Of a DNA stretch of 64,000 nt, positions 18,828 through 60,702 are shown piece by piece. The position numbers and the translations under genes are program-made. This DNA is from Takakia lepidozioides (lineage: Eukaryota > Plantae > Bryophyta). Every line of letters starts with the position of its first letter. Within the stretch, counting starts at the first letter, position 1. Under the pieces are notes generated by a model that was not told where the DNA came from, did no database searches, and saw nothing but the letters and a program-made list of their open reading frames with translations. Where the stretch lies: the NCBI GenBank assembly GCA_030704615.1, contig CM060733.1:55242001-55306000 (forward strand). The letters are read 5' to 3'.

Positions 18828-19556
18828 TGTCGCGCACCTCACTTCGATAAGCTCCCCTTCAAGTCATAGTTACTCGCTTTGATGCGCACGCCTGACTCCC
18901 AACCTGGCCACCCGGGCCAACTTGGAGCTTCGGCTGCTCACCGGGACATAACGGTCCCCCTTCACTTCCCTCTCGACCCTCCACCTATTTGGGACTAGGA
19001 GAATTCCCTTTGGTAGATGGCAGTCCGGAACATCTCCCCACTCTTTGGTCGCTTTCCGGCTCGCTCGCTTACTCACTAGTTATTGGTCACCAACGGGCTT
19101 GCACCGTTCTCAGCGTTACAACTCCCTATATATACTTCTGTAGCTGTCCGCGGGGGTTTCACAACCAGCCATGCCATTTTATGGCGAACCACCACGAAGA
19201 CCCTCGATTCCCGGTGGTGAGTCGCGGTGAGTCTTGGCCCACTCACCGCGGCCCCAATGGACCGTGATGAGTCCCAAGACTCCCCACGACTCCCACCTCG
19301 AGGTCTCCACCCCATGGTGAGTCCTATGCCACCCCCACTAAGTCCCGCTAAGCTACCACCACCCCTTGTGGAGCCACCCCCACCGCAACCCGGTGTGCGG
19401 GGCTCCACCTAGTGAGCGCCTCCGCCTCCTTGAGTGCCTTGGGCACTCAAGGGTGCTTCAGCCCCCCCCCCATACCTATCGCTGTCGCTGCCCCCACCAC
19501 AGGGGCAGCCCCTCATGTGTCCCGACCCCCTGCCCTCAAGGCAAAGGGCCGCGACA
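18828..19556 (-). repeat. 5' LTR of the chromovirus (729 bp)
   Basis: TG...CA ends with 7-bp inverted termini; matches 12688-13303. Confidence 0.95.
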
Positions 19557-19896
19557 AACAGATTGTGAATTTTGGAATTTCCAGAAGTAGGGTAATCGTG
19601 TGAATGAGCCAGATCTCGTTCGGCTCTGTGAGCACACACGCCGGTGACGATGATCAGGATAGTGAAATGGCGGGAGACCGTGAGCGCTCAAATGCGGCCA
19701 GTTTGCACCGAGCTTCAGATCGCGGAAGTCAGTTGTTTTCCTAGAAACAGATGGAGGCCTTAGGTACTTTGATTCAATCTGAGATACAAAAATTGGCCCC
19801 TGCACAAACTCAAACTGAAAAGCGATCTAGGGAGCTGCCTATGAGTGAGCCACTGAATGAGGGTGGGCTTGCAAATCCGGACTGGTTAGTGGTACC

Positions 19897-21326: not shown

Positions 21327-21989
21327 CAGGCGGTAAAGTCGTCGGAAAACAACTCCACGCATGACAGCGATGCCCTCCTCGAGTATTTGGCATCCGTTAT
21401 CTGTGAAAAGAGTATATATTCTCTTCTGTGCAACAACATATGAAGAGAATAAATTCTTACCACGATCAGGCACATGGATGACTCCCTTCAGAATGCCGTA
21501 AGTGGTGTTGTCATCCAAGGTAGATCTTGATAATGATATCACCAATGCCGCAAGCCTGAAGCATGATCCCACCGGTACCTTGGACTTGACGACGTTCGGC
21601 TGAAATGTCACGGTAGGTGGGAAAGGAGGGAGCGATCTTGGCACATATATTTCTGTGCATCCACTGTCAACGTACCAATAGCTTGATTTGTTTGGTGGAG
21701 AGACACTCTGTACCATCCTTCGTTCTTACCGGAATCATTAGACTTGCTCGTCTTGGCCGCTATTTCTTTAAGCTTCCTCTGAGCATTTTGCCACTTCTTC
21801 TGCTCGTCCTCCGAAGCAGTGCATTCGCGGCCCCAATGTCCTTCACCTCCGCACTTCCAGCAGCAGCTAGTCTTCTTATGATCGTTGCAAAGAACCTTGG
21901 CGATAATGGCTTTCTCAATGAAAGTCTTGTCACCGCGACTCTCTAGTTGGGTGATGATCACATCGATATCACCAAGATAGTAGCAATGT
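21327..21989 (-). mobile_element. Ty1/copia gag-protease fragment
   Basis: CWKCGGEGHWGREC knuckle, WYVDSGCT protease motif, VIHVP..KNLFS and LYRL. Confidence 0.85.
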
Positions 21990-25672: not shown

Positions 25673-25917
25673 CCGAGCCTAAAGCCCTGGTCCTGTTGGG
25701 GTCTAATTGCTGGGAAACTCACGCCCAGCAGATTGATGCTTGTGTGAAGGGCTTTCTAGAGGATATCTGGAAAGCCCGAACTAATTGTTTATATCAAGGT
25801 AAGTCCCACTACCAGGGTGAGCTCCCCACACAAAGGTACTGTTTATTTCCTCTTGTTCCGCCCAAACTGGGCGTGGGGTCTATGGCCATAAGGCTACGGC
25901 AAACAACGTCTTATTAG
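25673..25917 (+). mobile_element. Possible 3' remnant of a non-LTR retroelement
   Basis: LLGSNCW...VKGFLEDIWKAR resembles the extreme C-terminus of LINE ORF2; weak evidence. Confidence 0.3.
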
Positions 25918-25931
25918 TACTCTCATCCTAC

Positions 25932-27899
25932 TTGTTTTCATCCCTTTTGGAGGTTGCAGGTCTCATCAATAGATTTCGCACTCTGCAGGGCATTGGAGAA
26001 CAGGTTACCTTTACTAGCCTCTTGAAGAGGCCTTCCATAAATAGGATTGCTCTACTCCCACTTTGCAGGCTTGGGACACAGCCACGTAGGGACTTCTCTA
26101 GTGAACGAGATGCTTTCATACTGAAAGCATTGCAGTCTATAGCCGACAGGAACAAAAGTGACCCCCATTATGTCAACCATAAACTCTACAGGCTCTTACT
26201 TGAAGCAGACCTGATCAGACTGGCGGACGAACGTCTCAACCGGATCCCTGGGCAAAGTATACTGGGGCATGATGGTGAATCATGGATACAGGAATTTGTT
26301 CAGGAACTTCAGTCTGAACAGTTTCAGTTTCAACCAGGTAGGAGACTCTTCATCCCCAAAAAGGCAGGAGACTCCGAAGGTCCACTTTCAGTGCCACCCT
26401 TTAGAGATCAGATTGTCCTGGAGGCAATGAGGATAATACTAGAGTCAATATTTGAACCAGTCTTCCTAGACTCCTCTCATGGCTCCCGACCATTCCGATC
26501 TTGCCACTCTGCCCTCCAGTCAGTTAGAATGGGGCTGCAAGATCACGTTTGGGCTTTTGCAGTGAATGTGAGTAAGTATTGTGACTCAATCGATCACCAT
26601 ATTCTGGTGGGCCTGTTGGAGAAAAAGGTTGATGATAAAAGGTTCATACGACTGGTATGGAAGGCACTAAGAGCTGGATACAGCAAGACTACCGAAAAAA
26701 GTTGGACCTTTAATAGCATCTTGCAGGCCACCCAACAAGGAAACAGCCTGTCCCCGTTGTTGGTGAACATCTATTTTCACGCATTGGACTGCTGGGTTCA
26801 TGACCACAGAGAAACTTTTCAGAGAGAAAAACTGAAGTCTGTTAATCCTCCATGGTTAAACCTGACAACCAGCGGGAGAGACTATGACTGGAAAGCGAAC
26901 GAAGCCAGAAAAAAGGAGCTGAGGGAGCAAGGAGGTCAAATCCCCAGCAGATTGGGAAATGATTCAGGATTTTACCGGATGTTCTACGTCCGATTTCAGG
27001 ACAACATCCTGTTAACCTTCATAGCCAAGAAAGAGGAAGTTGTCAACGTCCGAAAAGATTTGGAAGACTTCCTCAAAGATCACCTGAAAATTGATTTGAG
27101 GAGGGGAATCCCTCGAGTAATTCACCTTAGAGAGAGGCATGTTCTCTTCCTAGGGACTAAGGTAAGTGTTGTGAAAGCATCAGGCCAAGCTCGCCTCAAT
27201 GCTCCAGTGGATAAGATTATAGGTGAATTGGCTGATCTCAGCATAGTCTCACTTGGAGGGTTTCGACCTCGCCCCATCACTTTCTTGACTCAGTGCTCCC
27301 ACAACAATATTATCAAGTACTACAACTGGATTATGCAAGGGGTTTGCAATTACTACTCGTTCGTTGACAATTTCAACCGCCTAACGAATTATCTGAGACT
27401 TGCTATCAGGAGCAGCTGTGTCCGAACTCTAACGGTGAAACTCAAGCGTCGAAGAGCTGCAAGGACCTACAAAGATTTTGGGGTTGAGTGTGCGGCAAAA
27501 TACAGAGTGCCTGTTAAAGACGGCCAACCTGTCTATGACAAACTCTCAGAGGAAGAAAGAGCAATACTGAGGAACTGTCTGCGAATAGCAAATGCCTTAC
27601 GTGGAGAATGGGACACATTGGGACGGGTGGAAAAAGGGCTTCTGCAGAGATTCTATATCCCAGAAGTAATATGTGAGCCTAATGGGGACACGAATCTGGA
27701 ATTTAGAGGTGACTTTCTATTGTTCTGCAGTAATAGGAGCCAAAACAAGGACACTGTACAAGCCTCGAGGAAACTTGGACTTCTCCCCCCCTTACCCAAC
27801 CCATTGGATTTTAAAGAAAGCTTGGTGCCACCACCAAGACCACGCCTTTTCCCGAAGGCTAAGCAGCAGATGTATACTGGTACAAAAACAACAGCGTAG
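25932..27899 (+). CDS. Nuclear-encoded group II intron maturase-like protein (RT plus domain X, catalytically degenerate), probably organelle-targeted; true start likely in upstream exon(s)
   Basis: RRLFIPK, PLSVPPFRDQIVLEAMRIILESIFEPVF..SSHGSRP.RSCHSAL, IDH..L, QQGNSLSPLL.NIY..LD, YVRFQDN (the YADD position), FLG, and domain X IIKYYN...G..NYYSF.DN...SC..TL..K. N-terminal RRDFSS resembles a presequence cleavage site. Candidate acceptor ttgcag at 25954-25959. Confidence 0.88.
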   Translation: MFSSLLEVAGLINRFRTLQGIGEQVTFTSLLKRPSINRIALLPLCRLGTQPRRDFSSERDAFILKALQSIADRNKSDPHYVNHKLYRLLLEADLIRLADERLNRIPGQSILGHDGESWIQEFVQELQSEQFQFQPGRRLFIPKKAGDSEGPLSVPPFRDQIVLEAMRIILESIFEPVFLDSSHGSRPFRSCHSALQSVRMGLQDHVWAFAVNVSKYCDSIDHHILVGLLEKKVDDKRFIRLVWKALRAGYSKTTEKSWTFNSILQATQQGNSLSPLLVNIYFHALDCWVHDHRETFQREKLKSVNPPWLNLTTSGRDYDWKANEARKKELREQGGQIPSRLGNDSGFYRMFYVRFQDNILLTFIAKKEEVVNVRKDLEDFLKDHLKIDLRRGIPRVIHLRERHVLFLGTKVSVVKASGQARLNAPVDKIIGELADLSIVSLGGFRPRPITFLTQCSHNNIIKYYNWIMQGVCNYYSFVDNFNRLTNYLRLAIRSSCVRTLTVKLKRRRAARTYKDFGVECAAKYRVPVKDGQPVYDKLSEEERAILRNCLRIANALRGEWDTLGRVEKGLLQRFYIPEVICEPNGDTNLEFRGDFLLFCSNRSQNKDTVQASRKLGLLPPLPNPLDFKESLVPPPRPRLFPKAKQQMYTGTKTTA

Positions 27900-28588: not shown

Positions 28589-31500
28589 ATGGCAACAGGC
28601 AAATATCCGGAAACAGAAAATAGAAACGAGGAGAAACTTTGGAAGGAGTATTTTTTGGAGCCCAGTCAATGGGGGGACAATTCAGGCAAAAAGGTAAATT
28701 CCTGTTAAATTACAGAGAGGAGCAGCCAACAGGTGCATCGCAAAGCTTTCTTGGAATTTGTCATCCTCTCTCTCTCTCTCCCCCGAACGCATTTCTAGAG
28801 TCTTGGGAGCAATTCAGCATAGGAACTAGTGTGTGATACGTAGGGTTGGGGTGTTTGCTAGAAAAATGTGAGGGTGTCATTGGTAGCTGCTAGTCGCCAG
28901 GGGACGATCTATGTATGATTGGTGCTGAGGCAGGGAGAGCTGAAGGAGCAGGGGTGGAGTGTGGGTCCAGATTCATCCGAGAGGGCCGGATTTCAAGCAC
29001 AAGAGTAGCCATGATTTCCTGTGGATTGATAGCTACAAGAAACCTGCATGGGTAGATGGTCAACTGGAAGCAGCAGCAGCGATACGGTTGATAAAATCAG
29101 GCACCTCCACCATGTCCACAGCTTCCAAAAGGGAACCAAGAGAGGGAGTCCACAATACCTCTTCTGGGCGTAAGAGGACGCTATGTGAGGCGGGGCAACT
29201 GAAAGAGGCTCTACAGATTTTGCACCAAGGAGGCATTTCAGCAGAATCAGATACTTATGTCTGTCTCTTGCATAAGTGTATCAAGATGAAAGGTCTGGAG
29301 GCCGGAAAGCAGGTGCACGCTCACATTATACAAAGTGGATTCAAGCCAAATGTTTTCCTACACAACAACCTTGTCAACATGTATGTTAAGTGCGGGAGCA
29401 TCGTGGATGCACAGCAAGTGTTCGACAAAATGCCTGAACGAGATTTGATCACTTGGAATATACTGATGGCAGGATTTACCAAGCATGGGTGTGGTAAGAA
29501 TGCCTGGGAGACATACGAGCATATGATGTGGGAAGGGGTGAAGCCCAACCACATCACTTTTGTTTGCGTTTGCAATGCATGTGCAAGCCTGGCAGACCTG
29601 GAAAAGGGCAAAGAGGTCCATGGTGACATCGTCAAAGCTGGAATTGTACCAGATGTCATTCTGAACACTGCCCTCGTGGACATGTATGCCAAATGCGGCA
29701 GCATTGAAGATGCAAAGGGAGTGTTTGACAATATGGCTGAACGAAATGTGGTGTCCTGGAGTGCTATGACTGCAGGATATGTGCAGCATGGGTTTGGGAT
29801 GGAGGCTTTGGAAACCTACGAGCAAATGATGCGGGAAGGGGTGAAGCCCAACCACATCACGTTTGTTTGTGTTTGCAATGCGTGTGCAAGCCTGGCAGAC
29901 CTAGAAAAGGGTAAAGAGGTCCACGATGACATCGTCAAAGCTGGAATTGTACCAGACGTCATTCTGAACACTGCTCTCGTGGACATGTATGCGAAATGCA
30001 GCAGCATCAAAGTTGCAAAGGGAGTGTTTGACAATATGGCAAAACGAGATGTGGTGTCCTGGAATGCTATGATTGCAGGATATGCACAGCATGGCTGTGG
30101 GATGGAGGCTTTGGAGACCTATGAGCAAATGATGCGGGAAGGGGTGAAGCCAGACCAGGGCACGTTTGTTGGCATTTGCAATGCATGCGCAAGCCTGGCA
30201 GCACTGGAAAAGGGCAAAGAGGTCCATGGTGATATCATCAAAGCTGGAATTGTACCAGATGTCATTCTTAACACTGCCCTGGTGGACATGTATGCGAAAG
30301 GCGGGAGCATCAAGGATGCAAAGGTAGTGTTTGACATTATGGCGGAACGAAACGTGGTTTCGTGGAACGCAATGATCGCAGGATATGCCCAGCATGGGTG
30401 CGGGATGGAGGCTTTGGAGACTTATAAGCAAATGATGCAGGAAGGGGTGAAGCCGGACCTGGTCACGTTCGGTTGCGTTTGCAATGCGTGTGCAAGCCTG
30501 GCAGCCCTGGAAAAGGGCAAAGAGGTCCATGGTGACCTCATCAAAGCTGGAATTGCACCAGATGTCATTCTGAACAATACCCTGGTGGACATGTATGCCA
30601 AAGGCGGGAGTATCGCAGATGCAAAGGGAGTGTTTGACAATATGGCTGAACGAAATGTGGTGTCCTGGACCGCGATGATTGCAGGATATGCCCAGCATGG
30701 GCGTGGGATGGAGGCTTTGAAGACCTATGAGCAAATGATGCAGGAAGGGGTGAAACCGGACCGGGTCACGTTTGGTTGCGTTTGTAATGCATGTGCAAGC
30801 CTGGCAGCGCTGGAAAAGGGTAAAGAGGTCCATGGTGACATTATCAAAGCTGGAATTGTACCAGATGTCATTCTGAACAATACCCTCATAGACATGTATG
30901 CCAAGTGTGGGAGCATTGAGGATGCTAACGAAGTGTTCGGCAATATGGCTGAACGAGATTTGGTGTCGTGGAACACGATGATGGCAGGATATTCCCAGCA
31001 TGGTTGTGATATGGAGGCCCTGCAACTATTCGAAGAAATGCAAGTGGAAGGCTTGAAGCTGGACAACATCACTTTTATATGTGTTCTGTCTGCATGTCGC
31101 CATGCTGGCCTAGTCGATGAGGGTAGATACTACTTTGACTCCCTGCGTAAAGATCATGGTATCACTCCAGCGGTGGAGCACTTTGCTTGCATGGTGGATC
31201 TTCTTGGCCGTGCAGGGCGATTGGATGAGGCAGAGGACTTTATTAACAATTTGCCAATGAAACCAGATGCTGCGGTGTGGAGGGCCTTGCTTGGTGCCTG
31301 CAGAATTCATTGCAATGTGGAGATGGCTGAGCGCGCAGCAACGTCAATTCTCAAGTGGGATGAACAGGACCCCGCGACTTATGTGTTGCTATCCAACATC
31401 TATGCTGCAGCTGGTAGGTGGGATGATACTGCGAAGGTGAGAAAACTGATGAAGGTCAGAGGGCTTAGAAAGGAGCCAGGTCGGTGTTGTATTGAGGTCA

Positions 31501-31883
31501 GCAACAGGGTGCACACCTTTGTTGTAGATGACAAATTGCATCCAAAAATTGAGGAAATCCATGCTGAGCTGAGAAGATTGTATGGGCAGATGAAGGAGGC
31601 TGGGTATGTGCTTGACATGCGCTTTGTATTGCACGATGTGGGGGAGGAGCAAAAGGAATTTTCTCTTTGCCACCACAGTGAGAAGCTGGCCATTGCTTTT
31701 GGGCTTATCAGCACGACCCGTGGGACGCCTCTCCGTGTCATCAAGAATCTTCGCATGTGTGGTGACTGCCACACCGCCACCAAGTTCATCTCAAAGATTG
31801 TTGGCCGAGCAATTGTTGTACGGGATGCCAACCGCTTTCACCACTTTGAAGATGGGGTTTGTTCTTGTGGTGAATACTGGTAA
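28589..31883 (+). CDS. PLS-E-DYW pentatricopeptide RNA-editing factor with an N-terminal OSB-type PDF motif; exons about 28589/28599-28693 and 28971-31883
   Basis: Six L-S-P triplets, then L2-S2-E1-E2, PG box (KEPG), HSEKLA, KNLRMCGDCH and terminal EYW. A phase-0 GT-AG intron (28694-28970) joins LWKEYFLEPSQWGDNSGKK to IHPRGPDFKHK...LWID...PAWV. The 5' end is uncertain. Confidence 0.9.
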
Positions 31884-34272: not shown

Positions 34273-34850
34273 CAGAGGGGGGTGCTGCAAGCATCTTGTT
34301 CCATGACACCAAATCTCGTTTAGCCATAGTGTTGAAAACTCCCTCCGCATCCTCAATGCTCCCACATTTGGCATACATTCCACCAGGGTAGTGTTCACAA
34401 TGACATCTGGTACAATTCCAGCTTTGACGATGTCATCATGGACCTCTTTCCCCTTATCCAGGGCTCCTCCCAGGCCTGCACACGCATTGCAAACACAAAT
34501 GAACGTGATGTGGTTGGGCTTCACCCCTTCGCGCATCATTTGCTCACCACATCAAGGTGCCCTCACCACATTGTCCTTGTAAATTCAGTATGCATCTCAG
34601 GGCCGAGCCTGATGAGGGCAAAACAGGCTGAAATAGGTCGAAGAAGAAGGTGCCCTCACCACATTGGCCTTGACCTTGTGGCACGACCTATGGAGGATTT
34701 GACCACCCATGCTTGGTAAATCCTGCCAACATTATATTCCACGTGATCAAAGATCGTTGAGGCATTCTGTTGAACACTTGGTGAGCATCAATGATGCTCC
34801 CGCACTTAACATACATGTTGACAAGGGTGTTGAGTAGAAAAACATTTGGC
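34273..34850 (-). pseudogene. Inverted PLS-PPR fragments related to the 29-31 kb gene
   Basis: MMREGVKPNHITF...[16 protein letters not shown], plus a copy of the first S-P repeat (NVFLLNTLVNMYVKCGSI), with frameshifts. Confidence 0.85.
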
Positions 34851-42103: not shown

Positions 42104-43870
42104 ATGGCGTCAGCTGTCTGTGCCTCGTCGAGCGTGGCTGCCATCGCTGCCGCCCCCTCCACCAGGTTTCTGGGCAGCTGGATCATTTGTTTGTGTTGCA
42201 TGCTTTGGGAGCTTGGATTTTGTCTGAGATGTGACTGTGCATGAAGACATTTTGACTCCGTGTAGCTGCCTGCATGGAGATGTTGTGTTCAGGCAATGCG
42301 CGTAGACTCAGATTTGATGCTTTGTGTTATGAATGTGCATTCGCGCTGCAATGTGCCGTGACAGTGGTTGTTGTGTTCACATTTGGAGCATGTTCTGTTT
42401 TCTAATTTGGAAGACCTCAGTGGACAATGATGGGCTGATCTCTAACTCGTGCTTTCCTCTTCTCTACTCGTTGGGCTCTTTATAGATGCTTCTCCGAGCC
42501 CGTATAGCTAACCGCTTGCTTGGGTATTGTATTCAGCGCTCAAAAGGTTGTGAGCAATGTAGGCTCTGCCAAGGCCTCCTTCCTGTCTGGCCGGGCTCTC
42601 CGTCTGTCTCAGATTCCTGCCTCGTTTTCTAAGGGATCGCTGACCGTCACATCAGCAGCTGCCACTGAGAGGCCCCTGTGGTTCCCTGGAAGCACCCCAC
42701 CTGAGTATTTGGACGGCAGGTATGTCATTCACTCCGAGAAGTGTTCTTCATCTGCATGGCTCATAATTCAGCTTATAGTCCTGCAACACTATGACCGAAA
42801 ACGTTGTATTATTTAAGTCCAGCATTCCTCGACAGAATCCTCAGCAGCATTGATGTTTCTGACAGTTTCAAGGGAAATTATGCATTATGTATGGGAGCTG
42901 ATTAACTGACAAATGATCCATTTGATTTCAGCTTGCCTGCAGATTTCGGCTTCGATCCTCTTGGCCTCTGTAAGTACCCTTCTTTTCCTACCTTTTCGCA
43001 TGACTTACGTAATTTGGAAGGGGAATGATTCGTTTTTCATGAATGAAAATTCAGAGCACCCGGTCTCCAGAGCTTGGTTGGTTTGCCCTAGGAAAAACTT
43101 TCAAGGGGTGACGGATCTGGGTTGCCATCTTGCTGTTGAATCTATGCTTCTATCCTGCCCTGACTTGCCTATCTGTATGCTGTAGCGTCTGAGCCCGAGC
43201 TGCTAAAGTGGATGGTTCAAGCCGAGATCGTGCATTGCCGATGGGCCATGCTAGGAGCAGCTGGGATCTTCATCCCTGAGGCCCTGACAAAGGCTGGAAT
43301 TCTGAACACGCCTTCATGGTATACTGCTGGAGAAGCACAGTACTTCACGGACTCAACCACTCTCTTTGTCATTGAGATCATCCTGTTTGCATGGGCCGAG
43401 GGAAGAAGATGGGCTGATATCATCAAGCCTGGCTCGGTCAATACCGACCCTGTCTTCCCCAATAACAAGCTGACAGGAACAGACGTGGGGTACCCAGGTG
43501 GCTTCTGGTTTGACCCCCTCGGATGGGGCTCTGGCTCACCTGAGAAGATCAAGGAACTGAGGACCAAGGAGATCAAGAATGGCAGGCTCGCTATGCTGGC
43601 AGTCTTGGGCGCCACCTTCCAGGCTCTTTACACCGGCACTGGTCCCATTGACAACTTGTTGGCCCACCTTGCTGACCCCGGCCACAACACTATATTTGCT
43701 GTAAGAAACCCAATTTCTTTATAGCTCTGCTGAAAGATGTTACATTTTTCTGCAGGGCATACCTTTTGGGTGGACAGTATTAGTTGGATTTCTTTAACCC
43801 ATGTAATTTCTTTGAATCCTTGTCTGAGTTTGTGTGTCCATGTGTGTGTGTGCAGGCCTTCGGAAAGTAA
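42104..43870 (+). CDS. LHCA2: Photosystem I light-harvesting chlorophyll a/b protein Lhca2; exons 42104-42165, 42537-42719, 42932-42969, 43186-43700, 43856-43870
   Basis: In-frame GT-AG splicing gives transit peptide [16 protein letters not shown]..., then [61 protein letters not shown] and [16 protein letters not shown]. Confidence 0.95.
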
Positions 43871-44934
43871 AGAATCGTTTGTTGTAGTGAAAGCAATGAA
43901 GACGAGCAATGAAGACGAGCGATACATTGCATGGCTTGTGTCCGTGATACATTGCATGGCTTGTGTCCGTGACTGTACGATGGTTGTAGAACACTTCTGC
44001 TAAAACTCTTTCAGTGAGATTTTCATCAGTAAATTGTATAATTGCTTTTTGATTCTCAGTATCGATGGCGATGAGTGATCTTGGACTCTTCTCTTTCTGC
44101 TTGATTCCCCACCTTCCTTTTTTGTGGTCTCTTTTTTGTGGTCTCTCCTTTAGTAGAAGGCAATCATTTGTAACTGATTTTGCATGATCATGTTTTAGCT
44201 TGTTATGAGTCTCTGTTTTGTTCTCTACAATAGATCTCTGCACAGTGTGCTAAGCTGCACACACACTGTGGACTCCTGACGGTTAAAACTTTGAGAATTG
44301 TATTATTTGACTTTGGTTCTTCAGTGAAAGACTTGAGTGGTGCAGACGTCCTCCTTAGATAGCTCGACCGTAGGTGTAGGCCGATTGGGATGTAGCCTTA
44401 ATAAGGACTAATCTGTGGTTTGCTTCAGCAATGGAATTGTACATGTATCCACTGGGTGTCTGCAAATTGGCAATGTGCAGCATGAGATAGTCTGCCAAAA
44501 AGAATTGAACATTGAATAGATACAAGTAATTGAGAAATTATATATAATACTGTAATAAAACTCCAGCAAAGGAAAAAATTCTTCTCATTGCTAATCTGTA
44601 ATGCTTAAAAAGTATACCCCAACCATTTTCCACTATAGTGAACAAAATGATTATTGACAAAAAGCACTCACCATACATTCATATCCACTCCCTCATTTGA
44701 CAAAAACATTTGATTCTGTAACCCTCCTCTCACAAACTTGCCATGAGCAGATCCATAAATTACAAACATGAATGTAAGAGTGTTAATGGAAATAGTAGAG
44801 CCCTTCAAAAATGAGACACAGAACCTACACCCTTCAATTACCCCATATGTGCCTGCAACTTCAATACTTAAACAGCAATAAAGTTAGAAATATTCTTCAA
44901 CATCTACTCTTGCTCTTGATTCTTGTTTCCTGTT

Positions 44935-45045: not shown

Positions 45046-46568
45046 CAACAATAGGTTCCCTCCACGACCATCATCTTCTACAAAATAATTAAAATCACAT
45101 ATCAAGATTGTGCAAACATGTATAGAAGTAAATAAAACGTTGACTCACTCAGTAGGACCCGCAGTTGGCTCTCCACTCTCGGAGTAGAACTGATATTCGA
45201 TCTTTGCGTGATCAAGACTCGAGCAGACAATGAAAGTTTGATGGATTGTGAATGGTCAACCCAGGTGTACCTCTACCACTGTGGACTCATCATAATAGTG
45301 GATGTCGTGCGACAGGAGCTTGAAAATTTTATGAGCTTCATAAAACTCAAGCTCCTCTTCAAGCTCCTCTCGTACGACATCTTCTATTATTTGAGATTGG
45401 ATCTCCTGAGGAACCCGTCTTACTTTGAGAGCAACTCCAAGGGTCCTCCTAAACTCTTGATTGCCCAAAGTCAGCTGACGGAGATTGGCTGTAATTCGAT
45501 TCCTTGACCCTATGGGCATTTGGAAACACAATTCGTAAACATTAATACAAGTGGAGTTCAAAATTATACACACACAAAGACTTCAATACATTTCAATTGT
45601 TGAGGCGCACTCACCCAAAGCGGAACCGTCAAGACTGTAGAATAAAACGATAGCATCCTCGCCATCCTCTCCGTCCTCAATTGAGCCTTCTCCAATTGAA
45701 TCTTCATCTCTGAGACCTTAGCAGCAAGGTCCTCAACCCTCTTGTCGGATGGTACATCCTTGGAGCTAAACACCCTAGATGGCACCAATCTTCGCAAACC
45801 CAAAGCATGAAAGCGCACTGAAATCTCGCGCATGGCCACCATCATCCTACAATTGCTTACACATGTCAATATGGAAAGCATAAGTGATGATTGAACATAG
45901 ACCCCTACTCTCAATCAAATTGCCGGTTATTGTCAAAGGTGAGGTCTAATTGGGTGTCTTCAATGCCTGGGTGGACAAAGGTCTTCGATAGGATGATACC
46001 ATTGGGCCTTTTGGTGAGGATGAGCTGAATTTCTAATGGAAGACGGTTAAATAAACTGTCCCAAAGAACTTCAACTTTCGACCTTGAATAATATGTCAAA
46101 AGAGAGGTGGATTCTTGGGAGAGTTTCTATCTCCTCTGTGGCTGACAAGATCATTGGGAGGACACTACTTGTCTGCGGTAGAGCTATTAATTGGTGGACC
46201 AATGAGATCAGACTCAAGATAGCCGAGAGACAAGGCTGCCGCAATTTGAAAGTTCTGCTGCAGCCGTGACTCGAGGAGCAGCACGAGTTCCTGAGCCACG
46301 AGGTGCAGAGGTGGAGTTGGATCCACAGCGTGGGGAGCAAGCTGTCAGGCTAGGCTTCCTCAGTCATTCACATTGGCGGAGACAGTGTCGACGCCATCCA
46401 TGGCACCTAGTTTTCGCCCGATTGTTACCGAGGCGGAGATTACTATGCCATTGGGGAGAGCTACACGGGTAGCACCACTACCTAGTGTTGCCAAGGCTAC
46501 GGCAGCTAGTGTGCTGCTAGGAGCGGCCATATCTGTGTGCCAGGCTCCATTGTTCTCGGGTACCATGA

Positions 46569-49500
46569 TTGCGACGCCGGGGGGTAAGACCAGCTGAGGT
46601 GTTCAGGCTGGCAGCTACACTTTGTGAGAGTGGGGAGGTTACTTCATCTTCTGCGGAGATAGTGGGAGGTGTAGTGCCAGAGGGATCCTCGGATTTGAGG
46701 GTCAAGACTGCCACGGCGGCGCCATGGCAAGCTGTAGCTGCCAGGTTGATGGAGCTGCCAGCTAGGCCAGCCATTGAGCGTGCCATGGTTACACCTGGAG
46801 TTGTCACGTTAGACAACCAGGATGACATTTTCTGTTTGAGTGGACCGGCAGGCAAGAGGTACCGGCCACTGCGGGTCTTGTTGGACTCGGGAGCTCAGCC
46901 ATTGATGCTGGGCAGAGCTACTATTACAGGCTTGGGCATCACGGAGGCGGATATGGAGCCTTGTCATTTCCAGATACAGACGTCTCTAGGAGGATCGAAG
47001 CAGGCTCGGGGCATGACACGGCGTGAGGTGGCTATCAGACTACGGCCGGATCATCCTACAAATGGCTCAGTGATGCAAGCCAAGGCCATTGTGACAGACG
47101 CGGTCTCATTCGATGTCCTGGTTGGTGGGGCAGTGTTGTACCCCATGGGCTTCACCTTGGATTTTTGGGAGGGGTCAGCTTCATATAGGCTTGCATGGCA
47201 GTCAGGGGAGGGCCGGGGCGTGTGCAGCTCCCTGTGACTTTCATAGGAAGAGTTGCGGTTGCCCAGCGAGGCAAGATGCCGACACTAGCAGCATTCACAG
47301 CGGCAGTGAGTTGGCCTGGAGAGTTGCTTGAGGGCAACGCTCATTTAGAGGATGACATACCTCCAGCAGAACAGGATGACATGTATGATATGGCGGAGTT
47401 GCCTGCCATGGTTGCTCAGACTCCATTGTGGGGCACGAGCAAGGATTTGCATCGGGTTGCTGATCGATGGGTGCAACAAGCCTGGGTAGAGGCTTTTGTA
47501 CCGTCAGGAGAGGAAGAGAGTGCGGGGATTGCACCAGGACCACCTCAGTTGTCTCCATTGGACACCACACCTATTGTGTGGCAGTATCCGGATGAAGGCA
47601 TTTGTCTTCTGGACTTGTTTGGCGGGATCAGCACCGGATTGGCTGCTGTGTTACAGGCAGGTGTACGAGTTTGGCGTTACCTGTATGTGGAGAGGGATAA
47701 GACTGCATGACGCGTTTCACTTTGCCATGTTGCTCAGTTGGTGCAGCGGTACCCTAAGTTGTTGCCGGTGTCTGCAGTTCATGGATATCAGCAGGCCTTG
47801 CCAGTAGACATTTCGTTGCTGGGGGCGCAGGATTTGGAGCGGGTTGGCTCCATTGATCTGGTAGTGGCAGGTTGGCCTTGCCAAGGGCATTCATCAGCCG
47901 GGCATGGCAATGGATTGCGAGACTCGAGGTCGGGTCTGTTTTGGGAGATGGTGCAGGTTTTGCGCCACTTGCAGCTTCATCAAGCTGTATCTCCAGCATA
48001 CATCTTGGAAAATGTGCCACTGATGGGCGATTCTCGGGCCAGGGTGATGGCCAGTGTGCATCAAGTCCAGTTGTGGCTTGGGTCAACAGTGTTGCTAGAT
48101 GCAGCTACAGTAGGGTCACGGGCTCATCGTCCACGGCTATGGTGGACTAACTTGATGCCACCCGCACTGCTCAAGCGTGCATTTGATGGGGTGCAGCGGC
48201 CAGCACATCTCACAGTGGATAGCATTCTGGACACAGGGAGGCAGTCTCAACGTGTGAGACACGATAACCGTTCGCCTTTGGCAGTGGTCAACAAGGTGGG
48301 TCAACCACGAGCAGCATTACCTACACTGCTCAGTTTCCCAGGATCGCATGCTTTTCGGGATAGTAGACCTGGCCTCATGTGGGATGCTCAGTTGCAGCAG
48401 TTAGTGGAGCCTAATGCTGACGAGCGTGAGCGGGCAATGGGTTTTACCACTGGTACCACGGCGGTGTCGTCTCTTTCTGAGGCATCACGTCGTCAGGTGT
48501 TGGGGCAAGCAATGGATCTCAATTGCTTGACCTGGATTATCAGCTTGGCTATGGCTGAGCAACGCAGAGTGCGGAGTACACTTCCTTCGATGGTCTCTCT
48601 GCCTACTGAGACGGTACAGGTAGTGAGTGGAGGCGAGCATGTAAGGACCACGGGGTGCAGGCATCCATGGCACACGGGGGAGGTGCTCGAGGTTCAGAGG
48701 GAGTTGGCAACCAAGGTGGCGGTGATAGATGAGGTTGGGGATTTTTCTCGGGTGGAGGAAGTCCTTGAGGATGAGATGATGGGGCAGGATGAGGCCTTGT
48801 CACTGACTGAGCAGGTAGGGAGTACTGCTCAAGAGGTTGCAACATAGCAACCACTAGACGCGTCCTCTACCTCTAAGCCCACTGGACTTAAGGTTGCAGT
48901 TACGGAGGACAATTGGGAGCCTGACATTGGACCCATTGTCACCGGAGGAGAGAGACAACGTATACGGCGGTTCCTGAGGGCTTACAGGAACTGCTTTGCC
49001 TTCAATTTGAAGGACTTGGGAGCACTGAAGGGTCAAGAGATCCATATTGAGTTGGCCACTGACACGCCAATCTTTCGGAGACCCTATAGATACAGTGACA
49101 TGGAGAGGTCTTTGATTCAGATGAGGACTCAAGATCTCTAGGAGGCAGGTTTGGTGGAGCTCTCTGGTGGAGAGTATGCTTCAGCCACAGTGATGCCAGC
49201 CAAGAAGGATGTCTATGGCAATTGGACGGAGAGACGTATGTGCGGTGATTACCGGCCTGTAAATCGTCAGACCGAGTCCGATAAGTATGCCATGCCAACA
49301 CCAGAGGAGATCTTTGATGCCATCAGGCATGCTAAGGTCTTTAGCACTTTGGATTTACGATCCGGATATCACCAATTGCCAATCAAGGAGGCGGACAAGC
49401 AGAAGACGGCATTCTGGGGGATCAATGAGCACGGCAAGGATTGCCTATATCAGTGGCGGTTCTTACCATTTGGGCTTAAGAATGCTCAGAGAGTCATGGA

Positions 49501-51489
49501 TAGGATTCTAGCAGGGGTGGACTTTGCTCGGTGCTACATAGATGCCATCATCATCTTTAGTGTTACGGTGGAGGAGCATGAGAGACACCTTCAGGTGGTA
49601 TTGGAGCGCTTGAGAGCGCACGGATTGAAGTTGCATCCGGGGAAGTGCAAGTTTTTCCACAATCAGATTGAGTATCTGGGTCACATGATATATCCTGGAG
49701 GATTGGGGGTACAACAGACTAAGGTAGAGGCCATTGCACAAATTCCACGCCCCACGGATGTGAGCCGAGTTTGAGCTTTCATGGGGTTGGCAAACTATCA
49801 TAGACGGTTTGTCAAGGGATTTAGTGCCATTGCAAAGGCTCTAACCAAGCTGACCAAGGTGGACTAGGAGTGGCAGTGGGAAGATGAGCAGGAACGAGCT
49901 TTTCAAGAGCTCGAGGCGAGGTTGACCTCGGCGCCTATCCTGAGACAACCTATCAGGGGGTGTCCCTTTCAGCTGCATACGGATTGGAGCATGCTGGGGC
50001 TTGGAGCGGTGCTCACACAGGTGGATGATGAGGGAAGAGAGTTTGTAGTGGCTTATGCTAGCCGCTCGAACAACGCTGCAGAGGCTAAGTACAGCTCATA
50101 TGAGGGAGAGTGCTTAGCTGCAGTGTGGGCCATGGCACACTTCAGGTGCTATCTATACGGCAATCTTTTCACCCTTGTCACGGATCACCAGCCACTCAAG
50201 TGGTTGATGGAGTCAGACAAGCTTACGGGGAAGCTTGCACGGTGGTCACTCATACTCCAGGAGTATGACTTTCAGGTTGTGCATCGACCGGGTTTGATCA
50301 ATCGGGATGCGGATGGATTGAGTCGCAATCCATGCACGAGCCAGCAGGATGACACTGGAGCTCGGTGGCATGGTGAGACGGACAAGGAGATGGTATCGGG
50401 ATGGCACGCATCTGCATTTTTGTGTATCTTGGCATCGGGAGGTCAGGTTGGACCTACAACAAGGATAACTGTAGACGGAGTGTCTGAGGACCCTAAGGCT
50501 AGTGTTGAGCCAGGTGGTGCCAGAGATATACATGAGGATTCGGCTGTGTTGGACTACCTCCGCACGGGAGACACGACAGCCACTGTGACTGCCAGGGAGA
50601 GGGATTGGATCCTGCAACAAGCCAAGAGGTTCAAGTGGGAGGGGATACACCTACTTCGAGTGTGGGAGGATGGTCGGGTGAGGATTGTGCCTCACCCCAC
50701 ACAGTGTGCATGGTTAGTGCGGCATGCCCATGAGGAGTTGGGGCATTTTGGAGTGCGACGCACTCATAGTTTACTGTAGGGGCAGTATTGGTGGCGTGGT
50801 ATGCATACAGAGGTGCAACAGTTTGTGGCTAGGTGCATGGTGTGTGACAGGGTGCGTGCTTCATTCAATGCCCATACACCACAGTTGCATCCTTTACCAA
50901 TCATGGGATTGGGCTACAGGTGGAGTCTTGACTTCGCAAGACCGTTGCCACTGACTATGCACCACCACAGATATGTGTTGGTGATGGTGGAGCACTTCTC
51001 CAAGTGGATTGAGTTGGTGCGGAGATTGGTTGTGTCCACACTGCTTGGGATAGTGGCAGTGGACATGACTGGAGGCAGCTAACAAGACATGGGAGGCCAA
51101 GCTCATAGGAGTCAATACATGAGATCCCAAGCTCAAGTTCACAGGTTGCAAGATGGCGACTAACGATGGGGCAACTCTTGCACCCGGCCTCTTGATCTAT
51201 CGAGTTTGAGTGTAGTAGGGATAGTGGTGGAGGACTTAGTGAGGCTATGGTCACTATCACATCTTGTGGCTACCTGGACTTAGAGGGACCTAAGCACCAG
51301 CTAGGGGGGCGATTGTGTGGACTAGTGACTGCCATAGTGGGCAGCATAGTGGCAGCCTAGTGACTGACTAGTTGTAGCCAAGTGGTTGGACTAGTGGTGG
51401 ACTAGTGATATACTAGTGTGTGGCGTGCACATGTGTTGTGTGGTTTTGGACAGCGATGTAGTTGTGTAGCGATATGTATGCGCACGACA
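46569..51489 (+). mobile_element. Degenerate Ty3/gypsy retrotransposon encoding a C5 DNA methyltransferase (protease, DNMT, RT, RNase H, truncated integrase, PHD-like tail, PPT, short LTR-like end)
   Basis: VLLDSGAQ protease; DNMT motifs; RMCGDYRPVN, TLDLRSGYHQ, PFGLKNA, YIDA; HTDWS, YEGECLA; H..GH..C..C, WSLDF; PPT AGGGGGGCGA at about 51303-51312. Confidence 0.92.
47600..48545 (+). pseudogene. DNMT3-like C5 cytosine methyltransferase domain inside pol (one TGA at 47708)
   Basis: Motif I LDLFGGI, II YVERD, IV DLVVAGWPCQG, VI ILENV, VIII AHRPRLWWTN, IX ERERAMGF, X RRQVLGQAM. Confidence 0.92.
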
Positions 51490-51996
51490 GCTGTCAAATT
51501 ATTTTATCACTAGTGTGAAATTAGCTAGGAAATAGCTAGCTTTTACATATTGACATTTGGGATTGGCCCAAGTGTCAATCCAGGGGTCAAGGCAGATTTA
51601 GGCCCTGGAGTGGTTATCTTCACGGCAAGCGCGGGAGGCTCATCTTTCTCGAGTTGAGCCTCACCGCGCCTAGCTATGGCGCCGTAGTGTGGATTCCCCA
51701 TGGCATGGGGTGCACTTGGCTTGACTTGTATTTGAGTGATGAGTTTATATATGCATGAGCTATGCTTAAGCTTTGTGAGCTCGCATGAGCTTGTGCTTGT
51801 ATTCCTCTTCTTTATCCATTATATGGACTAGTAACTGCCATAGTGGGTAGTATAGTGACAGCCTAGTGACTGACTAGTTGTAGCCTAGTGGTTGGACTAG
51901 TGGCTGGACTAGTGATATACTAGTGTGTGGCGTGCACATGTGTTGTGTGGTTTTGGATAGCGATGTAGTTGTGTAGCGATATGTATGCGCACGACA
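51314..51996 (+). repeat. Two ~176-bp direct repeats (51314-51489 and 51820-51996) flanking a ~330-bp rearranged LTR-like insert
   Basis: Both copies end ...ATGCGCACGACA; the first copy begins TG directly after a PPT. Confidence 0.85.
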
Positions 51997-52904
51997 AACA
52001 CTTTGGCGAGGGCTTTCTTACCTTCAGGACTGAGATCAGGAACAGGTGGTGGTGCAATTGCAGCAACAACATCTAAGGGGCCATGTTGTATGCCTATGGC
52101 CTCTAGTCCAAAGCCAACTTGCCCTCTTGTATTTCAGCAATGGGTAAGGCAGTGATGCGAGCCAGGACCTGCCCTTTCTTAATTGTCACATGGAAGCGCT
52201 CAGGGTTAGCAATTAGAATCTTGACTTCTTGCCACTAGAAGCATTCGTGTCTTTTCCGAATCGACTGCATATCCGCGACCACTCCGGGAACCACTTGGTA
52301 GTAAGCGGGACTACTGGAGAGTCGAAACAGACAATGTGGGCCCACGGGGGCATTTCGGACAGCGGACAGAAGTGGGGTCAACGACTCCGGAGTCGTAGCA
52401 GAATTCCGGACTATTTAACGAATTGCGTAAATACATAAAATTTGAAAAAGCCAAAATTACAAGTGGTTGTAATTACTACACATGCGACTACAAATTTTTG
52501 GCAGCACATTTGCTGACGTGGCTTTCACAAAAAGATGTAAACAAAATGTGGCCTTGGGGGAATAGATATTTTAATACGTGCTGTCTCCACCTGGCAGAGA
52601 CATGGATGCAAGTGTTGCGTCGGACATGGCTGGACATGGGAATGCGAATCCTGACACGACAAGGCCTTCGTATACTGTGAGCGCGCGTAGTGGCTTCTCA
52701 GAAGGGTGTGACATCGGGGTCTTGGTCATTCAACATTTACAGAATGCGCTGGATGGAGGCACGATGGAGCGCGCATACGGGCATGCCCTTCTGGCATCAA
52801 TTCCCAAGTATCCACGTAAGGTGAGGCTGCTGAATTGGGTTTTTGCCCGTCTAGTTTTCTGATAGCATGCTTGAAACGTTCATAGTGCCATTGAGTGGCC
52901 TTGC

Positions 52905-53870
52905 AATAATTTGATTTGTAGCTGCTTTTCCATTTCACAAGTTATGAAGAAGGCGTCACAGAAGAAGATCGCAAAGACGTCAAGGCTGAAGGATATGCCC
53001 TTTGGTTGTGAACTACAATCATATCATGCCAAACCCCATTTTCCCCACGCAAATGAGGGAGACATTCTGCATTTGCGAGTAGTGGGACTTAATTCCTTGC
53101 TTTAGCTTGAAGGCAGTTGTGACACCAGAGAAACTGGAAACTACCTCCAAGAAAGTTGAAACTCGCAAGATAGTCATGTATTCGTCTCATTATCTCCAAA
53201 CTGGGATTCCGAGTTATCAACCGACCCTTTACATGTGCGCTGGATGGAGTATAATTTTGGTTTAGGCATTTCCTACCACCAGACGTTCGCTTCTCCAATT
53301 TTTACATTTAAGGATGTGTCTGTGTTTATGGCACTCTTTCTCCCAATGAGGCCTGAGTACCCCCTGTACTTGCAAGAATTTGATGTGTAGCTGCTTTTCC
53401 CTTTCATAAGTTATGAAGAAGCAATCACAGAAGAAGATCGCAAAGAGGTCAAGGCTGAAGGCGTTCATTAATGGTTAGGATTCTAAAATCATATCATGCC
53501 AAACCAGCTTTTCCTGACGCAGATGGTGTCATGAGACATTTTGCGATTTGCGCGTAGGTGGACTTAATTTTGATGTTGACTTGAAGGCAGTTGTGACACC
53601 AGAGAAACTGGAAACTACCTCCAAGAAAGTTGAAACTCGCAAGATAGTCGTGTATCAATCTCGTCATCTCCAGCGATTCCGAGTTATCATCTGACCCTTT
53701 GGATTCGGACTGCATGGAGTATAATTCTGGGTTAGGCATTTCTTGCCACCACACGTTGGCTGTGACACCAGAGAAACTGGAACCTACCACCAAAAAAGTT
53801 GAAACTTGCCAGATAGTCATGTATTCGTCTCGTTTTCTCCAAACTGTGATTTTCAGTTATCATCCAACCC
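52905..53870. repeat. ~470-bp tandem duplication plus a third partial copy
   Basis: AAGTTATGAAGAAG...GAAGAAGATCGCAAAGA at about 52940 and 53410; TGTGACACCAGAGAAACTGGAA at about 53118, 53592 and 53761. Confidence 0.85.
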
Positions 53871-55112
53871 TGTATGCATGATTTGTGCAGAGGCATGCCT
53901 AGATGAAGGAGTAGGGATACAGTGTGGGTCCAGATTCTTCCAACAGAGTCGGCCTTCAAGCTCCAGATTACCTTTGATTCTCTGTTGGTTTTAGCTACAA
54001 GAAACCTGCATGGGTACCTGTTCAACTGGAATCTGTAGCAGCTGCGGCACAATTGAGCAAAATCAGGCGCTGCTAATGAAGGCACTTCCTTCGAGACCCA
54101 ATTCACCATGTTTTTCCCTCTTGTTAGATCCTGCCCTAAATTTTTATGGTTCAATTCTGCAAGTTAGCTGGTTGAGTGAACCTTTGATGGTTTGGAGTGA
54201 CTTTGACATGATGCTTCCAATGAGTCAACAGGAAAGTATCCAGAAACAGGTGACACATACGAGGCAAAGCGGTGGAATGAACACTTTTGTGACCCTGGCA
54301 GTCAATAGTGGGACAATCAAGGCAAATGGTGTATGCCTGTTGGATTGCAGAGAGTACCAGATGCAAGACAGCATAAGAACTAGTGTGATAAGTTGTGTTA
54401 GGTGTTTCCTAGAACAAATCTAGGCTACCATTATCAGCTACAAGGCAAGGATGTACGCATCTTTTCTGCAGAGGCAGTGATACCTGAAGGAGCAGGGATG
54501 GAGTGTGGGTCCACATTCATCCAAGAGGGCCAGATTTCAAGCACAAGATTACCTATGATTCCCTGTGGATCAATAGCGGCAACAAACCTGCATGGGTAGA
54601 TGGTCAAGTGGAAGCGTAACAGCAACCGGCTCATATCTGGAAATCAGGCACTGCTAATGAAGGCACCGCGTTCAACACATTTCAGGCGCTTTTCCCCTCT
54701 TATCAAAATTGGCCCTAAAATTTCATGTTCAATTCTGCAAGTTTGCTACTTCAGTTAATCTTTGACAATTTGGAGTGACTTTGAAGTGATGATGCCAATG
54801 TCACAACAGGAAAGTGAGGGGAAACAGGTAACACAGACGTCGTCAAAGCTGTGGAATGACTTCTTTTCTGACCCTGGCAGGCAACGGTGGGTCAACCGAG
54901 GCCAAAGGGTAAATGCACGTTGAAATACAGAGAGTGGCACATATCCATTGAGCGGGAATAGTGTGATGAGTCTGAATTGGGTTTTTCCTAGAACAAATGA
55001 AGGTAGTCATTGTCAGCTGCTAGCACCAAGGCAAGCATGTATGCATGATTTCTGCAGAGCATGGATAGCGAAGGTGCAGAGATAGAGTTTGGATCCAGAT
55101 TCATCCAAGAAA
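53870..55112 (+). pseudogene. Tandem ~583-bp units encoding intron-split OSB-type PDF motifs (degenerate)
   Basis: Exon B starts at about 53934, 54515 and 55099 (IHPRGPDFKHKITYDSLWINSGNKPAWVDGQ). Exon A reads LWNDFFSDPG..WVNRGQR|gt at about 54850-54908. Confidence 0.82.
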
Positions 55113-58732: not shown

Positions 58733-60702
58733 TTACCAGATGTAGTCATCTTCATCGCTACTACTTTCACTACACTCATGGTCAGTGTTGCAATCCTCAC
58801 TATCTTGGTGCCATGGTTCGTCCCTTTGTGGCGGCCTCATCATAGCAATAGTAGCCATCTCAGCTTCGGTAAGGGTCGTTGAAGGTCCAAATTCTGTGTT
58901 GGGATTCACATCCTCCAATGCCTCCGCCACTTGCATCCTTACGCATGACTCATTCTCACCCAAGCTGACACCAGTGACATCATGTACCACGCGCCATGAG
59001 CGCGGCTCCTTCTGAAGTACTACTTTCCAGTTACCAGCGTTGGAGGGCTCATCTGCAAAACAAACTTGCTCGACTTGCCATGGAAATGTGAATGGTTCAT
59101 CTCCCGGTGGCAACATGCGATCGAAGTCCACGAGTAGGAAACCATACTCATCCTTCTTCATGGTGCGGTTGCGACCTGTCAAGCTTGCTCTGACCCATTC
59201 ACATATGAATACTACAGGAGTGACAGCACCATACTGAAGCTGTAAAATTTCACGAACAACACCGACATATTGCAGCTGGTTCATGACAGGGTTACCATCC
59301 ACACCCCTTCCCATTGACTCTTCGGCAAAAATCTGTGCAACCCCAGAGTCGAATGTGACATGGTAATCAACCACACCTGTTTCCACCACTCTGTAGTGAT
59401 TTCCGTATGCCCACATAGACCGAAATGAACGAGCAACAAACCCTGGTGGCTTACACAGATGACGAATATTTGCATCATACGCTGCTCCTCTTGAAACAAC
59501 ATTTTGTACTGTCGACTGTATCCACATATGAAAAGCAGGCAAAGGCAACATGTTTTCGGGGTATGGAACGGTGCGTTGGTGTGCATTTCTCCCTTGGGTG
59601 GTGTATGTGGCTCGAAATTCGGCTCTGGCTGATTCTATGGTGGCCTTCTCAATATCATAAAGTCTGGTCATACTCAATTCACACTTAGTCAGGACCATAG
59701 TATGTACAAAGAGGTTGAGTGAAAATTGAGAATGCGCCAATTTTGTGTCCGGAAATGGTTCCCAGAGATAGCATGTGAAGCCAAATAAATGATGTATACT
59801 TACCTCAGAAACGGTCTCATGCACGCCGTGTTGTGAAGCACATAGTCGTGTGCACTAGCCCGAAGCTCAGCCGATAGTTTCCTTGGAGTTCCAAAGCCCT
59901 CTAATACTTCTCCCGCAACACTTTCTTCTTTGTTGCAATCCCAGACCCTTCTACGAGTTCCTGGAAATGCAGCTATGTACTCTGTGAGGAGGCCAAGAGC
60001 CTCATCAAGAGAATACCTCCTGGCCATGCAACCTTTTGGCCGGGCATAGCTCTTCACATATCCCTTCAAATTTTTCATGTACCTTTCGATGGGGTACATC
60101 CAACGCGAACTAGCAGGACCACAAACCTCCAATTCATTCACAAGGTGTAGCACAAGGTGGGTCATGAGATCGAAGAATGAGGGGGGAAACTCTTTCTCCA
60201 ACAAACAAAGCGTTACAACCACATCCTCCTTCAGGGCTGGTAGTTCCTCGGGATCCACTGTTTTCATGCACAATGCGCGAAATACACGAGATAGCTTCAT
60301 GATTGCGAGCCTTGGACCTTTGCCCAACAAACCTCGAATGCACAAAGGTAGAACTTGTTGCATCAGTAGATGGTAGTCATGACTCTTCATGTGTGAAAGC
60401 TTGTTCTTAGCAATATGCTTCTTAAATGAAGCACCATACCCTGTCGGTGTCTTTAGAGCACCCAAAGTTGCATAGAAGGTAGTAGTTTCCTGTCGATTCA
60501 ACACGTAAGGAGCCTGCGGCTTCACCAACTTCCTGCCATCTCCGGGTGGGGTTTTAACCATAAGTGAGGTCGTATGCCCTCATTCTCCATGTCCTAACTG
60601 CTCTTTACTGTGTCCTTTTCCCCCAATATGGTGCGCAATATGTTTTCATAAATGTTTTTTTCACAGTGCATAACATCAAGGGTATACCGTATCAACAAAT
60701 CC
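58733..60702 (-). mobile_element. CACTA/En-Spm transposase remnant (DUF4218- and DUF4216-like regions)
   Basis: LDVMHCEKNI, MKSHDYHLLMQ, LEKEFPPSFFDLMTHL..HL, GP...RWMYPIER, DEYGFLLVDF, EPF..P.QVEQV. Confidence 0.9.

Follow-up and report, generated by a model that had tools for sequence, protein, structure and literature searches.

In the current study, analysis of a 64,000-nucleotide stretch of Takakia lepidozioides DNA (assembly GCA_030704615.1, contig CM060733.1, positions 55,242,001 to 55,306,000 of the forward strand; hereafter the window, whose own numbering is used throughout) revealed that positions 46242-51996 hold a 5'-truncated and dead copy of a Ty3/gypsy-type retrotransposon family that is very abundant and has its own DNMT3-like cytosine methyltransferase (DNMT). 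The domain order of the family is protease (PR), DNMT, reverse transcriptase (RT), RNase H (RH), integrase (IN) and PHD finger, and the layout of the family in land plants is probably, to judge from the sequences, Gag-PR-DNMT, a leaky stop and RT-RH-IN-PHD. The termini of the element are split repeats, in the order A-body-polypurine tract (PPT)-B-GC-A-B. We lean towards the view that the DNMT is made at the level of Gag, ahead of this likely leaky stop, is packaged, and likely methylates the new cDNA of the element.

The methyltransferase domain and its element

The DNMT3-like C5 cytosine methyltransferase domain lies at 47591-48562 on the forward strand, as do all parts of the element described below. 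At 47609-48510 it contains the motifs LDLFGGI, ERD, AGWPCQG, ENV, AHRPRLWWTN, ERERAMGF and RRQVLGQA in canonical order, as the original prediction, a reading of the letters alone, had described; the catalytic Cys codon is at 47879. The search with a Pfam hidden Markov model proposed in that prediction yielded a match to DNA_methylase (PF00145, E 2.4e-12), and the likeness to DNMT3 was corroborated by the best sequence matches of the domain in the PDB, which are DNMT3A/B. An intact relative, L001 (67% identical), matched DNMT3A with an E value of 1.3e-11, DRM-type enzymes with 5e-05 and HhaI/HaeIII with about 1e-4 to 1e-3, while the predicted model of its DNMT (pLDDT 94.5) found its best fold match in DNMT3A/B (E 1.4e-20, TM score 0.74, 21% identity). 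Animal DNMT3A/B and the host plant DNMT3/DRM enzymes give the best sequence and fold matches, yet at about 21% identity, and in contrast to host DNMT3/DRM the DNMT of this family is not permuted in the manner of DRM, is intronless and resides inside a retroelement. No PWWP, ADD or UBA domain was reported by Pfam in the proteins scanned, and the ESM Atlas returned generic C5-methyltransferase clusters only. Across 123 domains, the catalytic Cys is retained in 118, the motif VI Glu in 122 and the two motif VIII Arg residues in 116 and 118, respectively; motif IV reads EC for PC in 31.

The DNMT is fixed in the family and evolves under purifying selection, not neutrally in all copies, with ratios of non-synonymous to synonymous substitution (dN/dS) of 0.09-0.17 (0.125 for L019/L020, 0.110 for L019/L021, 0.093 for L020/L021 and 0.170 for L001/L003) in pairs that are between lineages or near-intact and in which dS is unsaturated; for pairs of the window copy with its relatives dS is saturated (pN 0.19-0.22, pS 0.75-0.78). 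The domain belongs to the element and is no neighbouring gene, and it is shared by a land-plant clade, so that a one-off capture does not describe it. Its portrayal as an integral pol domain holds as regards this membership but not as regards position, as the DNMT ends the Gag-PR open reading frame (ORF) and a conserved stop precedes the RT. That it does not derive from a spliced host DNMT3 mRNA stands in part: the domain lacks introns and retroelements are closest to it, and the trees include no host DNMT3.

The span initially assigned to the element, 46569-51082, proved too short at both ends. Homology begins at 46242 (tblastn with P0004/P0006 as queries), where contig depth also climbs, and the 3' end is at 51996; gag and the 5' repeat are missing, which constitutes the 5' truncation. 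A remnant of the Gag-to-protease linker (46242-46856) is followed by an aspartyl protease with an LLDSG motif (46857-47201; Pfam Asp_protease_2, E 0.0046), the DNMT, an RT in which YIDA replaces YxDD (49142-49771; RVT_1, E 2.5e-26), RNase H (49868-50299; RT_RNaseH, E 7.5e-36) and the integrase zinc finger with the start of the core (50690-51018; Integrase_H2C2, E 2e-06). The remainder of the integrase core is deleted at 51018/51021, positions at which contig alignments show loose ends, and the C-terminal PHD remnant GDWLCPHC was recognised by translation at 51021-51050, an intact PHD finger being present in L019 (Pfam E 2.6e-10). Six-frame translation bore out that the pieces at 47195, 47738, 49151, 49922 and 50801 share a single frame, and it placed decay stops at 47708 (within the DNMT and not found in relatives), 49139, 49772, 49865 and 50777. 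The protease ORF (46569-47237) does not share the DNMT frame. The frame break near 47215 is private to the window copy, as most aligned contigs are without it (120,808 of 177,682 depth in run X1), and PR and DNMT are in one frame in L001 and L019.

Alignment of 64,214 contigs of run X1 on positions 45500-52500 gave a summed depth of approximately 10^6, level over PR, DNMT, RT and the 3' repeats, and of approximately 400 in the left flank; such depth is a sign of abundance and not a copy number, and the family is very abundant in the genome. A 2,325-nt record in run X8 spans PR, DNMT and linker unbroken. It aligns with 46799-49066 at about 95% identity, and its ends resemble a cloning-vector polylinker, so that we take it to be possibly a cloned genomic fragment.

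A protein search recovered 81 relatives among 3,667 candidates; the top ones are from Calypogeia fissa at 74% identity and Marchantia polymorpha at 70-72%, and Sphagnum proteins reach 52-57%. A profile search found 58 long proteins, including Klebsormidium nitens KFL_009030040 and proteins of Closterium, Haematococcus and Scenedesmus, and 202 representatives were obtained at E<=1e-30 (50% clustering; part of these were inspected). In viral contigs the matches (17 loci) were short throughout, at 32-61% identity. From 80 metagenome loci, 34 were examined; the other 46 (L035-L080) are short low-identity matches and were left out. The relatives have two layouts, namely DNMT before RT, in streptophyte names and some unnamed proteins, and DNMT between RNase H and integrase, in all named chlorophytes.

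In the DNMT tree the window copy groups with Calypogeia, Sphagnum and Marchantia in a clade of 23 rows (support 100), enclosed by a 52-row clade (97) which contains nearly all ORFs that end soon after the DNMT; P0062, also such an ORF, groups with Klebsormidium instead. The RT-RH tree repeats the main DNMT clades, and the stop-bearing elements form one clade in both, supported at 97 for the DNMT and at 99 for RT-RH. Both are quick trees, the former without a host DNMT3 outgroup and the latter with only two non-DNMT RTs. From these trees a single capture of the DNMT appears likely for the green-lineage elements including that of Klebsormidium. The suggestion of a lineage special to land plants was not borne out, the family nesting in a green-lineage-wide group to which the Klebsormidium element belongs. 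Two side observations concern the chlorophyte-type relatives (P0060, P0065-P0076 and most of P0088-P0125; Haematococcus, Scenedesmus and Hariotina, the last represented by P0072): about half of them have EC for PC in motif IV, and two proteins with the DNMT-first order (L034/P0091 and P0121) have a DNMT that groups weakly with this clade.

The stop between methyltransferase and reverse transcriptase

An in-frame TAG at 48845-48847 is followed by CAA CCA (48845-48853 in all). When the contigs of four runs were compared over 48640-49180, no difference was found at 48845-48853 (threshold 30%); the stop at 49139, which served as a control, is absent from 652,722 of 657,459 X1 depth. Among the 34 loci examined, 28 of the 29 family loci that span the site carry a TAG or TAA there, and L034, which lies outside the clade, has none. 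The family-wide TAG is therefore not decay, for which all stops had originally been taken. Near-intact loci retain the frame on both sides of the stop: between Gag and PHD the 2,328 codons of L019 contain a single stop, as do the 1,702 codons of L021 between PR and PHD, and each time it is the conserved one.

A CAR codon lies directly 3' of the stop in 27 loci, and the full CAR-YYA consensus is found in the window and five loci (L001, L019, L020, L021 and L033) in three versions: CAA CCA, CAG TTA and CAA TCA. CAR-YYA is the readthrough signal of tobacco mosaic virus (TMV), a signal functional in plants (PMC2754532), and the window and those five loci have the same stop and 3' hexamer as the TMV-type UAG-CAR-YYA. 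By this analogy the conserved stop is likely read through. The family differs from TMV-type readthrough in that the stop follows the DNMT and is not at a gag/protease border, and in that a moss-like family has CAA CCC. DNMT and RT are continuous in five NCBI gene models (Marchantia and Sphagnum), whose linkers of 32-135 aa compare with about 170-210 aa in genomic loci; these models probably skip the stop by predicted introns.

Split repeats and the proposed replication cycle

Downstream of the coding region, a conserved non-coding stem-loop (51150-51195) has 97% of its cells paired; changes on both sides occur in two of its 12 pairs, which is weak covariation support, and Rfam gave no match within 45500-52500. 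A PPT-like motif with a G run (51299-51311) abuts repeat B1, and this motif recurs in the equivalent place in seven loci (L003, L007, L008, L015, L018, L019 and L021). The 3' end of the element then consists of B1 (51312-51489, ending in GACA and 95% identical to B2), the dinucleotide GC, A2 (51492-51817, beginning with TGTCA; A is also the 5' end of L003, L018 and others) and B2 (51818-51996), whose terminal GACA closes the element. The B1/A2 junction GACA-GC-TGTC (51484-51496) is a copy of the joined element ends, and it is kept in the window, L003, L018 and L021, and in L019 with a GT spacer, among elements whose DNMTs are as little as 50% alike. The complete layout is seen in L018: AAGG / A1-Gag...PHD-PPT-B1-GC-A2-B2 / AAGG. 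Elements of the family have TGTC...GACA termini, and 4-bp target duplications flank all three loci with both ends (L018, L024 and L008), with AAGG, CACA and ATGT seen; L008 ends at B1 and its A is shortened. The join of A2 and B2 is blunt and falls where a linear cDNA would have its ends set by primer site and PPT.

In seven of ten cases part of A is complementary to the 16 nt that follow A1; these cases represent three unrelated sequence versions and pair over 15-16 nt, and only 0-2 of 2,000 shuffles reach the observed pairing. This complementarity suggests self-priming. The putative self-primer of the window copy is at 51638-51653 in A2, and its complement, a putative primer-binding site on the minus strand (12553-12568), lies in a second, rearranged fragment of the family (12104-12690) made up of a split and partly inverted repeat A and approximately 270 nt read as 5' leader. 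In L019 (8810-8850) the putative self-primer of repeat A is preceded, approximately 26 nt upstream, by a TATA-like box, a feature that is weaker in other lineages and that fits a transcription start at this primer.

A replication cycle can be proposed in which transcription would begin within A1, and the 5' end of the RNA would pair with the site after A1 and start the minus strand in the manner of Tf1/Tcn1-type self-primers. Transfer of this strand to A2, together with priming at the PPT, would yield a linear cDNA with B-GC-A as its terminal repeat; its ends would join to form a circle, leaving the blunt A2/B2 seam, and the integrase would cleave the palindromic GACA-GC-TGTC site and insert the element with a 4-bp duplication. 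Integrase cleavage of palindromic junctions between two long terminal repeats (LTRs) has a precedent in foamy virus (PMC1180852). Gag-PR-DNMT would be the major translation product and RT-RH-IN-PHD would arise by readthrough only, such that the conserved, likely leaky stop makes the enzyme a predicted bulk component of the particle and points to cDNA, the nearest substrate, as its likely target. Methylation may make the new copy resemble host DNA or pre-set its silencing. More broadly, it is conceivable, though we hold it to be doubtful, that these elements form an ancient green-lineage retroelement class distinct from both LTR and DIRS elements, one which self-primes, has a B-GC-A terminal repeat, integrates from circles through a DDE integrase acting at an internal palindrome and, in land plants, makes a Gag-level DNMT3 that methylates each copy prior to insertion.

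A number of observations weigh against this proposal or parts of it. The pairing test failed in L004, L005 and L012; the pairing in the window joins two different copies, and that of L019 comes from a collapsed assembly. Permuted copies, with A-B-GC-A at the 5' end, would be expected because a circle with two identical junctions would be cut at random, and none was present among six independent intact 5' ends (L003, L005, L012, L016=L018, L024 and L029). As regards the stop, 22 of 28, from the moss-like family and including duplicates, read CAA CCC, the last base being off the consensus, and the context in L023 is TAG CCA. Algal relatives lack the stop or have the DNMT after RNase H, and Gag-level dosage is thus not needed everywhere. 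Decayed moss-like copies have dN/dS values of 0.38-0.59 for the DNMT and 0.26-0.47 for the RT, and the enzyme of the Klebsormidium element KnitGypsy-Dnmt3 produced no de novo methylation in yeast, a result its authors regard as inconclusive (PMC5890265). The observed/expected CpG ratio of the element, 0.53, lies among the 0.40-0.60 of other old repeats in the window and thus indicates no extra depletion. CpG depletion was also considered as a mark of self-methylation, on account of the ratios of 0.91-0.93 in a young chromovirus, and was rejected since the difference vanished against the other repeats and the whole window.

Alternatively, the main substrate of the DNMT could be chromosomal DNA, either where the element inserts and nearby or, in trans, at other host loci, with the integrase-PHD as guide, rather than cDNA in the particle. 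The PHD finger on the integrase in most relatives and the location of the DNMT directly before the integrase in chlorophyte relatives would accord with such a target, but the stop would cause most DNMT of the land-plant clade to be made without IN-PHD and the extra CpG loss is not seen; we deem this explanation unlikely. A mainly structural or nucleic acid-binding domain (acting, for example, on cDNA ends during circle formation), or one that methylates RNA, with DNA methylation being incidental, seems rather unlikely in view of the near-invariance of the catalytic Cys, Glu and Arg over the green lineage and of closest folds that are DNA enzymes, even though the inactivity of the Klebsormidium enzyme in yeast, the EC variant of motif IV and a dosage at the level of Gag, which suits a structural role, can be cited in its favour.

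The stop itself could be the true end of the ORF, with RT-RH-IN-PHD expressed through splicing or re-initiation and the role of the DNMT unaltered. The shorter-than-genomic linkers of the five NCBI models and the deviation of the moss-like family from CAR-YYA are what this would explain; against it stand the frame kept across the stop and the three synonymous versions of CAR-YYA, while the models are predictions that likely bypass the stop with an intron, and we judge it quite improbable. The decayed state of the window copy is all that speaks for a neutrally decaying gene, be it a neighbour of the element or a host DNMT3 captured once, an idea to which the level contig depth over PR, DNMT and RT, the X8 record covering PR-DNMT-linker and the recurrence of the arrangement from liverworts to Klebsormidium under purifying selection leave next to no chance. 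Methylation of the element's own cDNA by a DNMT packaged at Gag level is the reading that we prefer.

Related systems, neighbouring features and significance

The closest described system is KnitGypsy-Dnmt3, a Gypsy element with a DNMT3 in Pol, DIRS-like repeats and Ka/Ks <0.2, for which the idea of cDNA methylation has already been put forward (PMC5890265; de Mendoza et al. 2018). Both it and the window family carry, within a Gypsy-type polyprotein, a DNMT3-like domain that is intronless and unrearranged; purifying selection and DIRS-like repeats are likewise common to the two, and the window copy displays the corresponding features, with the catalytic residues in such a domain, the PR-RT-RH-IN region and a B1-A2-B2 3' end. 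KFL_009030040, which we infer to be a copy of KnitGypsy-Dnmt3, has the same PR-DNMT-RT-RH-IN order and a DNMT 44% identical to that of the window. In contrast, the window family is a separate clade found in land plants, and it has a conserved stop in a readthrough context between DNMT and RT, where the K. nitens model and several ORFs of algal type continue uninterrupted. Whereas the capture is described in PMC5890265 as having been acquired by the K. nitens lineage, the relatives described here range from chlorophytes to bryophytes; the excerpts of that paper make no mention of a junction palindrome, target duplication or self-priming. A 2025 survey cites, in its available text, only streptophytes and dinoflagellates as earlier reported (PMC12344493). 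Our literature search, which covered few subscription papers and not Repbase, turned up, beyond PMC5890265, no report that treats copies in land plants, the junction, self-priming or the stop, an absence that carries little weight. DNMT capture by a Gypsy-type element is thus already known from Klebsormidium, to which the green-lineage breadth, the land-plant clade with its conserved, likely leaky stop and a split-repeat anatomy pointing to circle integration are substantial additions.

With regard to canonical Ty3/gypsy elements, the PR-RT-RH-IN order, TG...CA ends and short target duplication are present, while two equal LTRs with a PPT at the 3' LTR are not, as the repeats are split and the PPT abuts B1 rather than A2. 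Split direct repeats are a feature of elements of the DIRS order (PMC8557442). The A1-body-B1-A2-B2 order with an internal copy of the joined ends is shared with DIRS elements of the Ngaro/PAT kind. Also of this order is SymbioDIRS-Dnmt3, whose DNMTs methylate CG de novo in yeast (PMC5890265). Unlike DIRS elements, the window family has a DDE integrase with zinc finger and PHD, a protease, TG...CA ends, a PPT and 4-bp duplications; Pfam matched no tyrosine recombinase in the window or L019, and rve and H2C2 integrase domains were found instead. Self-priming is known from Tf1. It is predicted in Tcn1 elements (PMC6317226). The window family resembles the Tf1/Tcn1 type in that the sequence immediately downstream of the 5' repeat can pair with part of the repeat itself, but those are chromoviruses with ordinary LTRs, whereas the repeats of the window family are split and its RT is far from that of the chromovirus in the window. 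Troyka was considered and rejected, having CG...CG termini and a 3-bp duplication and occurring in animals only (PMC12440569), as against TGTC...GACA ends and 4-bp duplications. The three duplications seen do not conform to NCGN, the target preference of REXdb Phygy.

Elsewhere in the window, a young chromovirus-type Ty3/gypsy element (12688-19529, minus strand; Gag, PR, RT, RH, IN and chromodomain) with LTRs about 98% identical, a few point stops and a CpG ratio of 0.91 has inserted where the second fragment of the DNMT family has its edge. On the plus strand are a nuclear gene resembling a group II intron maturase (25821-27899; RT and domain X; 48% identical to a Physcomitrium protein, its nearest named relative) and a PLS-type pentatricopeptide repeat (PPR) gene with E and DYW domains and a 303-nt periodicity (28944-31883), with decayed or inverted PPR-like fragments near 9400-11100, 34300-34850 and 53700-55100. 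An inverted pair of light-harvesting chlorophyll a/b-binding gene regions (4629-5732 and 43313-44466), about 95% identical, is separated by approximately 38 kb. The maturase-like, PPR and light-harvesting genes mark the host as a land plant. Decayed Ty3/gypsy RT-RH and integrase pieces occur at 19861-24181 and 58736-60579 along with DUF4216/DUF4218 transposase pieces, which we take to be CACTA-like.

Since 2018 it has been a question how a retrotransposon benefits from having a cytosine methyltransferase, the Gypsy-type case being in print for Klebsormidium only, and the relatives in Marchantia and Sphagnum bring this question within reach of a genetic model. DNMT domains of such elements can be miscounted as host methyltransferase genes in bryophyte annotations, and the split repeats with their internal att-like palindrome suggest a replication via circles that LTR finders would miss. 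If the tentative reading of these elements as a class of their own were true, this very abundant family would be a source, carried by a transposon, of de novo methylation in genomes of the bryophyte type.

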